Positions 1 through 13,446 of a DNA stretch of 15,433 nt are shown here, in pieces. A program made the translations under genes and the position numbers. Source of the stretch: a virus (taxonomy: Duplodnaviria; Heunggongvirae; Uroviricota; Caudoviricetes); IMG/VR virus record IMGVR_UViG_2690316285_000003; one strand, written 5' to 3'. The notes under the pieces are model-generated. The model had not been told where the DNA came from and did not search any database. It worked only from the letters and a program-made list of their open reading frames with translations. Position 1 is the stretch's first letter. Every line of letters starts with the position of its first letter.

Positions 1-1332
1 TCCAGCAGTTCCGTTTTAATCAGCCACAGCCCGGCGCGGTGTGCCTGCCCCCGGCTGGTACAGCCAAAGGCATCCATCTTCGTGACGTTACGACCGTAAC
101 GGGCAATGGCCTGCGTGTCCTCCACAAGCTCTGTCGCCGTCTCCCAGCCGTTATCCGGGTCAATCCAGTTCACCTCAACGGCATTATGGCGGTCCTTCAG
201 GGCGCTGAAGCTGTAGCGGAACGGCGCGCCATCATCCGGCATCACCACATTACTGCGGTTATAGGTCCACACCTTATCTGATGGTCGGTCCTGCACGAAC
301 GTCAGCGTCTGCCCGTTCCATACCGGCATACAGCGCATCGCCGAGCAGAAATCACTGAGNNNNNNNNNNNNNNNNNNNNNNNNNNNNNNNNNNNNNNNNN
401 NNNNNNNNNNNNNACTGGCCGATGACATACAGCGCCCATTTATCCACATCTGCCGCACCAAGACGTTTACCCATGCCGTAGCGCGGGTGGGTCAGCATAT
501 CCCACAGACACCAGGCCATGTTGTTGCTGTATGCTGGCTTAAACGTTCCGTCCCAGATACCGCTGTATTGCCGCGTCTGCGGATTATAGTTCGACGGCAC
601 CTGCAGAATGCGCCCGCGAAGATGATAATTACGGCTCACCTGCTGGCTGCCGAACTGCTCCGAATCCACCTGCACGCCGACCAGTGCCGTGTTCGGGTAG
701 CACTGTTTCACATCGATGATTTCGGTGTATGACGACCAGAGCGTTTTGTTCTGCAGCTGGTCTGTGGTGCTGTCCGGCGTCATCCTGCGCATCCGGATGT
801 TGAACGGGCGCGGCGGCAGATTATCCACCACTACCGAGGCCAGATACTGCGAGGTGGTTTTGCCCTTAATGGTGATGTCTTTTTCCGTCACCCAGCCACC
901 GTTACGTTGTATCTGAACCAGCAGGCGAACTTCCGACGGATTCCTGTCCCCCTTTGAGGTGGTTTCCACCAGTGCCTGCACACCGAAGGTAAAGCGCAGA
1001 CGGTCAATGTTTGCCGACGTGATGGTCCGGGTGATCGGCGTGTCGTATTTCACTTCCGTACCCAGTACCGTCTCGGAACCTGATGATTCAAATCCCTCCG
1101 GCGGTGTCTGTTCCTGCTCACCTGCCCGGAACACCACCGTGACACCGGAGATGTTAGTATTCCCCTCACTGTCCAGCACCGGTGTACTGTTCAGCAGCAC
1201 GCTTTTTAATCCATCCACCGGACCTTCAACCGGCCCTTCGCTGATGGCATCGATCACACTCAGCAACTGCGTGGACTTCAGGTTGTCCTTTGCTTCGCGC
1301 GGGGTATGCCCCTTACTGCTGCCTTTACCCAT
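1..1332 (-). CDS. J: Tail tip/host specificity protein J, N-terminal part; 3' end lies beyond the window start; interrupted by a 54-N gap at 360-413
   Basis: ATG at 1332-1330 with GGAG about 8 nt upstream. The translation MGKGSSKGHTPREAKDNLKSTQLLSVIDAISEGP... matches the lambda gpJ N-terminus as I recall it. After the N-run the minus strand of 1-359 still reads LSDFCSAMRCMPVWNGQTLTFVQDRPSDKVWTYNRSNVVMPDDGAPFRYSFSALKDRHN... with no stop, but in a different frame from the upstream part, so the gap length is not the true length. Confidence 0.9.
360..413. other. Run of 54 N: assembly gap or masked bases inside gene J
   Basis: Directly visible as n characters. The J reading frame on either side is offset by one base, so the gap is a placeholder rather than a measured length. 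Confidence 0.95.
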
Positions 1333-9287: not shown

Positions 9288-9563
9288 TTACTCAATAAAG
9301 ATCATTGGCTTACCGTTAAAGCGTTCATGCCGTGTGACCGTCCAATGTTGTCCGTCATAAACAACGCGATCCCCGCGCCGTGGGCGGTATCCCGAAGAAA
9401 ACACCACCAGAGAGACCGCAGGTCCGGACAGAGCATTCAGCTCTGCCAGTGTTTCTCCCGGGATCACAGTCATATCGACATCATTAATCGAGGCTGTCTT
9501 TCCCATCTTTCTGACCGTGATCGCATCCATACGCGCTGCCAGCCGGGAAAAGGGATCAGACAT
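9288..9563 (-). CDS. FII: Head-tail joining protein FII-like
   Basis: 91-aa ORF in the FII position. Weak resemblance to lambda gpFII (RGD..., head-tail connector family). Its start overlaps the stop of the upstream gene by 8 nt. Confidence 0.65.
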   Translation of the reverse strand: MSDPFSRLAARMDAITVRKMGKTASINDVDMTVIPGETLAELNALSGPAVSLVVFSSGYRPRRGDRVVYDGQHWTVTRHERFNGKPMIFIE

Positions 9564-9879
9564 TGAGTTTTACCGGCACTTCTTCTGCACTGGTTCCGGC
9601 ATCTGCCCAGACAACCCCGACCAGCGGATCAGAGCCGCTGTTAGTCAGCTGAACTTTTCCGGACTTCAGATAAACCTTCTTACCCGTTTTCATGTCATCC
9701 GTTTTCAGCTTAGGCAGCATAAACACACCTTCGGTCATGCCGTCGCCTGTTTCACCCTGTTGAATATCGGTCAGCGCCACCGCAAAAATATCACCCACCT
9801 GCACCAGATCTCCGCTGCTGATGGCTGCACTGGCAACAATCGCCACCGTTTTTCCTTCTTCTACAAAATTCTTTGCCAT
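9556..9879 (-). CDS. Small head-associated protein of uncertain function (decoration/cement-like or FI-position protein)
   Basis: 107 aa from ATG 9879, which has GGAGA 5-6 nt upstream; the ORF-track start at 9924 would overlap the upstream hairpins. Sits between the capsid gene and FII. No family confidently recognised. Confidence 0.6.
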   Translation of the reverse strand: MAKNFVEEGKTVAIVASAAISSGDLVQVGDIFAVALTDIQQGETGDGMTEGVFMLPKLKTDDMKTGKKVYLKSGKVQLTNSGSDPLVGVVWADAGTSAEEVPVKLNV

Positions 9880-9911: not shown

Positions 9912-9922
9912 ATTTCAGGTAC

Positions 9923-9941
9923 AAAAAAAGCCCTTACGGGC
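9923..9941 (-). terminator. Weak terminator-like hairpin about 25 nt downstream of the capsid-fusion stop
   Basis: The minus-strand RNA reads GCCC-GUAA-GGGC followed by UUUUUUU. The stem is only 4 bp (all G-C), so this is marginal. Confidence 0.35.
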
Positions 9942-9965
9942 CATCAGAGTTGTTATCTGCGACGA

Positions 9966-11924
9966 TTACGCCGTACATTTCACCAGACCGCGGTGATCAA
10001 CTGGCGCGACACCAGCGTCAATACGCACTTTCGTTGTCACGCCATCCACACTGAAGCCCTCCATCTGATCAATATATGGCGTATCCACACCGTTGAGATA
10101 AGCCACTTCAATCGTATCGGAGCCTTTGGACGCAGCCAGGTAGAAGGTGGTCTGGCTGTTATCATCAAGACGAGGCTCTGCAATAACGGTCGCAAAATCT
10201 TTCACCGGGTTAATAATACCGGCGTTAATGTCAGCCCCCTTGACACTTGAGGAGCGAATGACCTGGTTAGCAACAGACTCCATCGCCGTCGGTACCAGTA
10301 CGAACGCAGGACGAATATTCAGATGACGCTCACCCTCTTTCTGAACGCGCATCAACTGGCGGGCTTTATCCAGCGATGCCACGTCCATTGCAGCGCTCTC
10401 CAGTACGTTTGCATGTTTCGCTTTATCGAACAGACTTACATTATCTGTGGAGATTTTCGGGTTAGACGTCAGAATGGCATAAACCAGATCGGCAATAGTG
10501 GATTTCGCCGCACGGCCCAGTTTCATCGGGACATCGGTCAGCATATTCAGATCATCATTGATAATGGCCTGACGGGTGATACTGAACAGCTCGCCATAGG
10601 TCGCCAGTGCAATAGTGGCCTGTTTATCTCCGGTGGTGACGTATTTATATTCCGCCCCTTCACGCACCTGACGCAGAGCACTGAAGCCCCCCATACCCAC
10701 ACGATGGGCAATTTTAAAATCAGACAACTGACCTTTCCGCGTCCACTGTTCATAGGTTTCAGGGGCATCTTCCCAGCCCTGCAGAATGGCTTTGTTCGCA
10801 ACATCCAGCAGAATATTACCGAAGTCAGACGTACTGTGTGTGAACGCCGCACCGACCATCTGCATCGGGTTATAACTGGAAACCCCAATACCCCGTTCAG
10901 TCAGTGACATACGGGCATATTCACGCAGGGTCATCCCGTTGTAGACATTATCACGTTCGGTTTTTTCAAATCCGGCACGCGCCATCAGCGCCTGGCGGAT
11001 CCCGTCCCCCACAAAATTACCGTTACCGGCATAAATATGAGCCGGGGTATTTTTATTGGATGGCGTGGACTCGCGCCCCATCTCGTTCAACAGCTTTTCG
11101 CGGGCCTGCTCCAGCGAACATTCAGGATCGGCAAGACACTGAGCCTGCAGCGCCTGATAACGCCCGCCAAACATGGCAAACAGATCATTAATACCGTTTA
11201 CACGCGCTTTTTGCTCTGCCAGGACCTGCGCACGGATGTTGTTTTCATCCACCACGGGTGCTGCTGCCTGCACTGGCGTCCGGGAGGCTGCAGGTTCATC
11301 ATCCTGTACGCGTGGAGCACTGTTGCGTGGCGGAGTAATCATGTTTCGAATGGATTCCGGCATCTTTTTAAATTCCTCTGTACGTTTTGACTGAATACAT
11401 GCCATTGCCTTAACGGCTGGCGTCACCTGATCAGCAAATCCCTGTGCCAGACATTCGGCACCGGACATCCAGGTCTCATCCGCCAGCATGGCAGCAATTT
11501 CATCGGTGGTTTTCCCGGTTTTCTGTGCATAAGCGGGTAACAGAACCGCCTCAACCTTATCGAGCAGGTCGGCATAGGTGCGCATGTCCTCCGCATCACC
11601 GCCCGTAAAGCCAAATGGTTTATGAATCATCATGAAGGTGTTTTCCGGCATAATGACCGGGTTTCCCACCATCGCAATGACCGACGCCATTGACGCCGCC
11701 ACACCGTCGACATAAACGGTAATGGACGCACCATGTGTTTTCAGCGCATTAAAAATGGCGATGCCTTCAAAGACATCGCCACCCGGTGAATTAATATGGA
11801 GATTAATGTGGGTGATATCGCCCAGTGCATTCAGATCACTGATAAACTGCTTCGCTGTAACACCCCAGAAACCAATCTCGTCATAAATATAAATATCCGC
11901 GTCACTCTGGTGACCAGCCTGCAT
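9966..11924 (-). CDS. Tripartite head gene: ClpP-like (S14) prohead protease, scaffold-like linker and major capsid protein fused in one ~652-aa ORF
   Basis: Start ATG 11924 lies 14 nt after the portal stop. The N-terminal ~180 aa carry ClpP motifs HINSPGGDV, GVAASMAS (catalytic Ser codon at 11693-11691) and MIHKP (His codon at 11624-11622). Residues ~190-290 are Q/A/E-rich and helical-looking. The C-terminal ~360 aa are capsid-sized and sit in the major capsid position. Confidence 0.8.
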   Translation of the reverse strand: MQAGHQSDADIYIYDEIGFWGVTAKQFISDLNALGDITHINLHINSPGGDVFEGIAIFNALKTHGASITVYVDGVAASMASVIAMVGNPVIMPENTFMMIHKPFGFTGGDAEDMRTYADLLDKVEAVLLPAYAQKTGKTTDEIAAMLADETWMSGAECLAQGFADQVTPAVKAMACIQSKRTEEFKKMPESIRNMITPPRNSAPRVQDDEPAASRTPVQAAAPVVDENNIRAQVLAEQKARVNGINDLFAMFGGRYQALQAQCLADPECSLEQAREKLLNEMGRESTPSNKNTPAHIYAGNGNFVGDGIRQALMARAGFEKTERDNVYNGMTLREYARMSLTERGIGVSSYNPMQMVGAAFTHSTSDFGNILLDVANKAILQGWEDAPETYEQWTRKGQLSDFKIAHRVGMGGFSALRQVREGAEYKYVTTGDKQATIALATYGELFSITRQAIINDDLNMLTDVPMKLGRAAKSTIADLVYAILTSNPKISTDNVSLFDKAKHANVLESAAMDVASLDKARQLMRVQKEGERHLNIRPAFVLVPTAMESVANQVIRSSSVKGADINAGIINPVKDFATVIAEPRLDDNSQTTFYLAASKGSDTIEVAYLNGVDTPYIDQMEGFSVDGVTTKVRIDAGVAPVDHRGLVKCTA

Positions 11925-11937
11925 CCTGAACCAGGAA

Positions 11938-13446
11938 TTAATCTTCGGACTGGTCGTCGGTGTGCTGCGGCTCCTGTCGTTTCGTTGCGGCACTACTGCC
12001 TCCTTTATCACTGGCCGGATCGGTATCAAATACCAGATCCAACTTGCGGTTTTCATCAATTTCGGCCTTGCGCCGACGTTTGACATCATCCGGATTACGA
12101 CCACCAGCACGTACCCAGTCTGATTCTGTCGCCGCTCCACCACGAATCTGGATTTTCCAGGCCTCAGCCTCCTTAACAGGGTCAATCCACGGCATCACCG
12201 GTCCGGAATACACCGCGGTATACAGTGAAGAACGGTCAAGATCGCGGGGTAGCCTGATAACACCGGATGCCACAGCCTGTTTCAGCCATGCACGATACAT
12301 CGGGCGGGTGACGGCACCAATAAACCAGTCCTGCAGGATCAGGTAGCCATCAGTGGATTCAACCAGCTCCTGACGCTGGGCGCTGTAAGTGCCGTTATAG
12401 TTGCGCGCTGTACTGGAAAAACTCAGACGACTGCCCGCCGCCACGGCACGCAACTGACCATTACGAAAAGTTTCAAGGTTAGGATTGGGGCGATCCGACT
12501 TCACCATTCCGATTTCTTCGCCGGGTTTCAGATCGTCGTAAATAATGCCTGGCTGAATGGTAAGCTCGCGTTCCTTATCCTTGCTGCCATTACCATCCGG
12601 TTCATAGCTCTGCCCGTCGCCTTTGCGGATGTACATCCCCAGAGCAGCGGCGATCCTTGCTGCAGTCAGCTCATAATCTTCATAATCTTTCAGGGCACTG
12701 AGGCGGATCAGCACACCGGACAACAAAGACGTCCCGCGCATCTGGTGCAGACGGCGAACAAATTTAAGATGCAGCATTCGCTCTGCATCCACTTCTTTGG
12801 TTTCCATCTGCCGTCCGGATACGGGACGGCTTTTATACACCAGATATTTTTCGGGACGCCCCCAGTCATCAACAAACACGCCCTGATTCAGCCTGTTGCT
12901 CTCATCACTGGTCATGGGAATAAAGTCTGGCTCGAGCGCCTCCAGCCAGAAATGAACACCGGCAGAAGGCGTCAGGCTGTTTATGCGCCCGGAAACCATC
13001 TGGGCAAACACCTCACCATCGCGCAGCCAGGTACGCAGCATCAGACGTTCCAGCATCGGACGGGTAAACTGCCCGGTGACTTCCGGGCTGACAGACCATT
13101 CACTCCATCGGGTGCGAATCTCCGCTGCCAGATCACGGGCAATGGCCCCATTGCGTAATACCGGATGTGGCTCGACAATAATCCCGTTTTTCCCCACCAC
13201 CCGTTCTTCCAGCTTGTCAAATACACCAATAACCAGATCGTGGTTGTTATCAAGGTAACGGGCCTGCTCACGTAACGACACGGCCCCGTACTGGCTTAGC
13301 TGGTCGGCAGTTCGGTTCTCCCGTCGGGCTTTGTGTGTCCGCGTCGTTTTTACGGCTTTATAAGCCTGGATCACCGCACGGGAACGCAGCCTTGCCGCTT
13401 TCCATCCAGGTGAAAAAACGCCAATCACATCATCAAGAATTGCCAT
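11938..13446 (-). CDS. Portal protein
   Basis: 502 aa from ATG 13446, which shares one base with the W stop (TGATG) and has GAGG upstream. Size and position between gpW and the protease/capsid gene fit a portal; the ORF-track extension to 13518 overlaps W and is rejected. Confidence 0.8.
   Translation of the reverse strand: MAILDDVIGVFSPGWKAARLRSRAVIQAYKAVKTTRTHKARRENRTADQLSQYGAVSLREQARYLDNNHDLVIGVFDKLEERVVGKNGIIVEPHPVLRNGAIARDLAAEIRTRWSEWSVSPEVTGQFTRPMLERLMLRTWLRDGEVFAQMVSGRINSLTPSAGVHFWLEALEPDFIPMTSDESNRLNQGVFVDDWGRPEKYLVYKSRPVSGRQMETKEVDAERMLHLKFVRRLHQMRGTSLLSGVLIRLSALKDYEDYELTAARIAAALGMYIRKGDGQSYEPDGNGSKDKERELTIQPGIIYDDLKPGEEIGMVKSDRPNPNLETFRNGQLRAVAAGSRLSFSSTARNYNGTYSAQRQELVESTDGYLILQDWFIGAVTRPMYRAWLKQAVASGVIRLPRDLDRSSLYTAVYSGPVMPWIDPVKEAEAWKIQIRGGAATESDWVRAGGRNPDDVKRRRKAEIDENRKLDLVFDTDPASDKGGSSAATKRQEPQHTDDQSED

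Follow-up and report, generated by a model that had tools for sequence, protein, structure and literature searches.

The single head gene of the Salmonella phage Gifsy-2 reportedly encodes a ClpP-like N-terminus, a central domain of roughly 200 residues with a possible scaffolding role, and a C-terminal capsid protein, and the cryo-EM maps of its capsid are said to have been fitted with HK97 gp5 and lambda gpD. This tripartite capsid gene is attributed to Effantin et al. 2010 (Virology 402:355) in passages of PMC12315714 and PMC8538268, and cryo-EM of the Gifsy-2 capsid is likewise cited in passages of PMC8538268 and PMC8814770.

The window, i.e., the whole stretch of viral DNA analysed (15,433 nt), carries a head gene that is closely comparable with the one from Gifsy-2. 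The 652-aa ORF, already delimited by an earlier sequence-only reading, was confirmed from the ORF list and its translation and could be assigned to the minus strand, which that reading had left out; it is uninterrupted, contains no internal stop, and holds all three parts in one frame (Table 1). The product aligned with the Gifsy-2 protein (STM1034.3n, NC_010393; annotated as 'Clp protease involved in capsid processing') over the full length of 652 residues with 70% identity and 83% positives, and both proteins have the same order of ClpP-like protease, central segment and capsid protein. The two genes also share their neighbours, namely the portal gene, the cement gene, the PF13856 gene, a lambda-type tail module and a terminator-like hairpin, the portal and cement genes being orthologous and lying in matching order, which bears out the proposal that this is a Gifsy-2-type tripartite gene. 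The differences are that the Gifsy-2 gene belongs to a Salmonella lineage and the window gene to an E. coli lineage, and that both linkers, the Pro/Ala-rich one and the second, have fewer residues in the latter. Based on the domain identities, the fold, the orthology with Gifsy-2, the conservation of Ser and His residues, the gene context and the prevalence of the family, we conclude with high confidence that the gene encodes a Gifsy-2-type capsid polyprotein, composed of a ClpP-related serine protease, a Pro/Ala linker, a three-helix scaffold-like domain, a second linker and an HK97-fold capsid protein.

Table 1. Features of the head-gene region, with positions counted from the first letter of the window, and the relatives scanned with Pfam.
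Feature	Position	Strand	Details
Fusion gene	9966..11924	minus	ATG at 11924, stop 9966-9968, 652 aa; ClpP-like prohead protease, scaffold-like segment and major capsid protein
Probable 5' extension	11925..11993	minus	in-frame GTG 11993-11991, 23 codons upstream of the ATG; product 675 aa
ClpP-related head-maturation protease domain	11421..11900	minus	residues 9-168; Ser78, His101, Glu150
Glu150 codon	11475..11477	minus	motif D-E-T-W-M, aligned with the ClpP catalytic Asp
Met188-Pro189	11358..11363	minus	just past the protease domain; MPESIR
Linker 1	11247..11339	minus	residues 196-226; Pro/Ala-rich; length varies among homologues (gapped alignment block)
Three-helix segment	11073..11246	minus	residues 227-284; presumed internal scaffold
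Linker 2	11010..11072	minus	residues 285-305; variable-length insertions among homologues; pLDDT 61-64
Major capsid protein domain, HK97 fold	9969..11009	minus	residues 306-652
Portal gene, lambda-family	11938..13446	minus	directly upstream of the fusion gene; Pfam PF05136, E=8e-82
Cement (head decoration) protein gene	9556..9879	minus	107 aa; Pfam PF09956 Phage_cement_2, E=7e-21; PHROG 122 'head decoration', E=5e-47
FII-position gene	9288..9563	minus	91 aa; Pfam PF13856 'Gifsy-2' family, E=2.5e-17; PHROG 153
Terminator-like hairpin	9922..9942	minus	short G+C stem and T-run, 24 nt past the fusion stop codon (pattern scan)
Six S78-type relatives scanned with Pfam			P0146, P0156, P0163, P0193, P0211, P0235

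The fusion protein as a whole was matched by the NCBIfam fusion-protein model NF045540 over residues 9-651 (985.9 bits against a cutoff of 475) and by PHROG 133 along its full length, and scanning its three segments with Pfam and NCBIfam models, a check that had been suggested together with the original proposal, returned a ClpP-related protease, a linker with a helical segment, and a capsid protein. The N-terminal part matched Pfam CLP_protease (PF00574) over residues 23-168 with E=6.5e-36, and NCBIfam NF045542 ('head maturation protease, ClpP-related') with 216 bits against a cutoff of 120. The ClpP-type Ser/His signature noticed from the letters alone was found as AASMA at residues 76-80 and MIHKP at residues 99-103; solved ClpP structures in the PDB matched this part with E values down to 1e-15, placing GVAASMA on the nucleophile Ser motif and MIHKP on the His motif. 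The third residue of a classical Ser-His-Asp triad was not an Asp in this alignment, the position of the ClpP catalytic Asp being taken by Glu150, which is invariant, like Ser78 and His101, among 12 homologues, whereas the adjacent Asp149 varies. The protease may have a Ser-His-Glu arrangement, and catalysis by the domain is plausible because an acidic residue is kept at the third triad position. All the equivalog and subfamily models for true ClpP scored below their cutoffs (e.g., TIGR00493, 58.7 bits against 308.6); since the domain reached none of the equivalog cutoffs, it is, as judged by profile matches, a ClpP-related phage protease and not a ClpP.

Full-length AlphaFold prediction from the single sequence was unusable (pLDDT 39.2), so that residues 186-652 were modelled from a 120-sequence alignment, giving a mean pLDDT of 89.9 and a pTM of 0.74. 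In this model, the first linker (approximately residues 197-225) has a pLDDT of 48-57 and is followed by helices at residues 227-250, 257-265 and 271-284 (fragment positions 42-65, 72-80 and 86-99) with a pLDDT of 92-98. The middle of the protein had been described as a Q/A/E-rich helical segment, and the three confident helices agree with this; nevertheless, a Pro/Ala linker lies ahead of them, and A, P, E, R, N and Q are the most frequent residues at 186-300. Given its position and the Gifsy-2 literature, the three-helix segment is presumed to be an internal scaffold, analogous to the delta domain of HK97. Linker 2 is likely the zone of maturation cleavage and a flexible N-arm.

After a second low-confidence stretch at residues 286-305, the model continues into an alpha/beta domain, predicted with confidence, whose spine helix is 28 residues long, and this helix together with P and A domains resembles the solved HK97-fold shells. 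Pfam Phage_capsid_4 (PF25209) matched residues 352-649 with E=9e-55, the Mu-like_gpT family of Pfam matched the C-terminal part weakly, and a weak sequence link connected the capsid domain with the Mu-GpT-type capsid protein of entries 8rkx and 8rkc (E=6e-4). The expectation that the C-terminal ~360 aa are the major capsid protein is upheld by the Phage_capsid_4 match and the HK97 fold of the model, the latter being the outcome of the structure prediction that had been proposed for this part. By analogy with Gifsy-2, for which capsid cryo-EM is cited in passages of PMC8538268 and PMC8814770, the capsid domain would build the icosahedral shell of the virion.

The other ORFs in the window encode terminase, a gpW-like adaptor, portal, cement protein, the FII-position protein, and the tail genes Z, U, V, G, T, H, M, L, K, I and J; none of them scored as a further protease, scaffold or capsid protein, in agreement with the reported absence of separate genes for these functions from the window. 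The fusion ORF had been placed between the portal and FII genes, and this position was correct, although the ORF does not lie there alone: the cement gene follows immediately downstream, and the match of the next gene to Phage_attach (lambda FII) is sub-threshold (E=0.0024; 18.9 bits against a cutoff of 26). The FII-position gene probably encodes a head-tail joining protein; for PF13856, Pfam has the description 'ATP-binding sugar transporter from pro-phage', seemingly a wrong name for such a protein. The portal shows 64% identity to that of Gifsy-2 in an alignment that begins at Met25 of the longest ORF, and the portal annotated in mEp460 has 502 aa. The cement protein is 61% identical to STM1034 of Gifsy-2; it gave no match to the lambda D-type family in the Pfam scan and nothing significant in a sequence search of the PDB, and, judging from its family assignment, it corresponds in function to lambda D but comes from an unrelated family. 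The fusion had been thought to stand in place of lambda C, Nu3, D and E. This is right for the protease, scaffold and capsid parts, but the D function lies outside the fusion, on the separate and unrelated cement gene. No ORF in the window matches the families of the lambda C/Nu3/D/E head genes, and the only lambda-family members of the head module are the portal and the terminase. The tail genes are indeed lambda-type, as had been noted; nevertheless, they provide no distinction, since Gifsy-2 has homologues of Z, U, V, G, T, H, M, L, K, I and J.

The hairpin behind the fusion gene looks like a terminator, a reading based on the pattern scan, on the rho-independent terminator annotated in the same intergenic region of mEp460, and on conservation in Gifsy-2, where the stem GGCCC/GGGCT and seven T also lie behind the gene (locus L002, 24590..24612) with a different loop; its folding energy was no better than that of shuffled sequences (z = -0.62). 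The hairpin separates the capsid and cement genes, whose products are expected in similar amounts. A masked or unknown stretch of 54 N occupies window positions 360..413 inside the J (tip attachment) gene. The apparent truncation or frameshift of J (ORF 352..1332, 326 aa; 41-nt gap relative to mEp460) was attributed to this N run and rejected as biology, and none of the E. coli genomes among the best matches listed aligned across the run in one piece.

The start codon of the fusion gene is probably GTG 11993 rather than ATG 11924. AAGGAGG at 12005-11999 precedes the GTG with a 5-nt spacer, while the ATG has only an abutting AGG and no usable Shine-Dalgarno sequence. The portal TAA lies 14 nt before the ATG, and the form starting at the GTG would overlap the 3' end of the portal gene by 56 nt. 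RefSeq carries the 675-aa form and phage GenBank records the 652-aa form. In an alignment of 12 homologues including Gifsy-2, the S-W-F/Y codons (11936-11928), which lie past the portal stop, are conserved, and the Gifsy-2 residue at the position of Met1 of the 652-aa form is Ile. The upstream start is thus indicated by the Shine-Dalgarno sequence in front of the GTG, by the RefSeq form and by S-W-F/Y conservation without Met in Gifsy-2, and the alternative 652-aa annotation would have arisen from the Met in place of the Ile.

The sequence-only reading had called the fusion a known architecture, yet the most unusual element in the window; the novelty implied by this has to be scaled back, since mEp460, cdtI, Ayreon, Tritos and other published phages have the same arrangement. 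The window aligns with mEp460 along 100% of its own length at 98.6% identity, and the fusion gene DNA is 98.9-99.6% identical in mEp460, cdtI, Ayreon, Tritos, phi458 and HannyBb. A near-identical gene (99% or more) could be found in 15-16 phage records and a full-length protein match in 80. Counted under its RefSeq name, 'ClpP-like prohead protease/major capsid protein fusion protein', the gene was found in 2125 of 5426 complete E. coli genomes (~39%). The labels in near-identical phage records range over 'putative protease', 'head maturation protease', 'head-tail preconnector protein Nu3', 'preconnector protease C', 'Major head protein', 'Major Capsid Protein' and 'ClpP'.

Beyond these close relatives, residues 186-652 used as a query retrieved 10,631 relatives of the scaffold-capsid part at E<=1e-3 from a representative library of 1.84 billion proteins. 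Among the 112 best representatives of at least 600 aa, clustered at 50% identity, 82 have a ClpP-type N-terminus and the other 30 are without it; all six of the latter that were scanned gave a Peptidase_S78 match, one of them just under the Pfam cutoff. Such S78-type fusions (NF045541, 'prohead protease/major capsid protein fusion protein') have a homologous scaffold-like segment and a capsid protein of the same PF25209 family, whereas their N-terminal protease belongs to the HK97 gp4/S78 family, unrelated to ClpP. NF045541 matched the window protein over residues 197-649 with 400 bits, below its cutoff of 525. The three-helix segment is conserved in fusions of both types, with homology beginning at fragment residues 12-27. 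From the profile matches, two unrelated proteases appear to have been fused to the same capsid family. Furthermore, some relatives of ~400-480 aa carry no detectable protease and are extended only slightly at the N-terminus.

The breadth of this family bears directly on whether the long ORF could be an artefact in which, for instance, a frameshift, a mistake of assembly or the decay of a prophage gene has run a protease gene and a capsid gene together. The many phage records that call the gene only 'protease', 'Nu3' or 'protease C' might seem to speak for this, since annotators perhaps expected separate genes; nevertheless, the same unbroken ORF occurs in the records of viable phages, in the 2125 E. 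coli genomes and in Gifsy-2, the fused frame is kept in most of the diverse representatives, and a curated NCBIfam fusion model exists. Conservation of the fused frame over thousands of independent sequences refutes the artefact, to which we give practically no probability. It is also very improbable that the N-terminal domain acts as a true, ATP-dependent ClpP subunit together with the host ClpX or ClpA instead of as an independent prohead protease. The similarity to cellular ClpP structures and the many database entries named 'Clp protease ClpP' would fit such a role, but the domain falls far short of the equivalog cutoffs and passes the phage-specific NF045542, and it forms one polypeptide with a capsid protein, encoded within a head-assembly operon.

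Another arrangement to be considered is a nested gene as in lambda C/Nu3, in which an internal start at residue 188 would yield a protease-free scaffold-capsid protein making up most of the shell, with few full-length chains, thereby lowering the protease load per procapsid. An in-frame ATG is present at this residue with an SD-like GAGGA 11 nt upstream, and Met188-Pro189 is invariant in 12 enterobacterial homologues; however, the 11-nt spacing is long, and among 120 diverse homologues (ClpP-type and S78-type, pooled) Met occurs in only 15, the column being mostly Ile, Ala and Val. Only the proline is kept, in 109 of the 120, after a hydrophobic residue (I/A/V/M/L). An internal start at Met188 was rejected as a conserved feature because Met is not kept among the diverse homologues, and we regard the nested gene as quite unlikely; Met188-Pro189 may mark a domain boundary or a processing site.

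For the capsid polyprotein, a maturation scheme could be proposed in which the scaffold role, the self-cleavage and its position, the T number and stoichiometry, and the binding of cement protein all rest on homology to Gifsy-2 and on what is known of HK97 and lambda. A T=7 procapsid would form from about 415 copies around the portal, enclosing their protease and scaffold segments. Tethered and concentrated in this interior, the protease would cut off the whole stretch that precedes the capsid domain, the last cleavage falling somewhere near residues 285-305. The fragments would then exit, the shell would expand in the course of DNA packaging, and bound trimers of the cement protein, which has its own gene, would stabilise it. 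A more speculative extension, which we consider unlikely, is that the scaffold-capsid part is a conserved cassette onto which ClpP-type and S78-type proteases have been grafted at one junction (a nearly invariant hydrophobic-Pro motif, here Met188-Pro189) that would serve as the primary self-cleavage site, combined in this E. coli clade with a GTG start inside the 3' end of the portal gene. If true, such a start would couple portal and capsid synthesis. No experimental work on the grafting junction or on GTG coupling was found in the literature searched.

The importance of these results lies mainly in annotation, and no new biology is added. The fusion supplies the major capsid protein in a prophage family that is very common in E. 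coli, Shigella and Salmonella and to which phages with cdt or stx belong, and recognising it could avert false calls of a missing capsid gene or a defective prophage; according to a passage of PMC8814770, an automated capsid-finding pipeline missed the HK97-fold capsid protein of Gifsy-2.

Compared with the classical head systems, the locus differs from lambda in that C, Nu3, D and E of lambda are four separate or nested genes, whereas here protease, scaffold and capsid are fused and accompanied by a PF09956 cement gene; the lambda protease C also belongs to a different family, S49. In HK97, the protease gp4 is a separate gene of family S78 and gp5 is a delta domain fused to the capsid protein, with a sequence identity of ~10%, and its shell is held by covalent chainmail cross-links rather than by a cement protein. 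Set beside mEp460, cdtI, Ayreon, Tritos, phi458 and HannyBb, the arrangement is identical, with effectively no difference. Since the window is near-identical to these published E. coli phages and the gene occurs in about two-fifths of complete E. coli genomes, the fused protease-scaffold-capsid architecture is an already known, widespread and curated one, with nothing new in comparison with the systems described.
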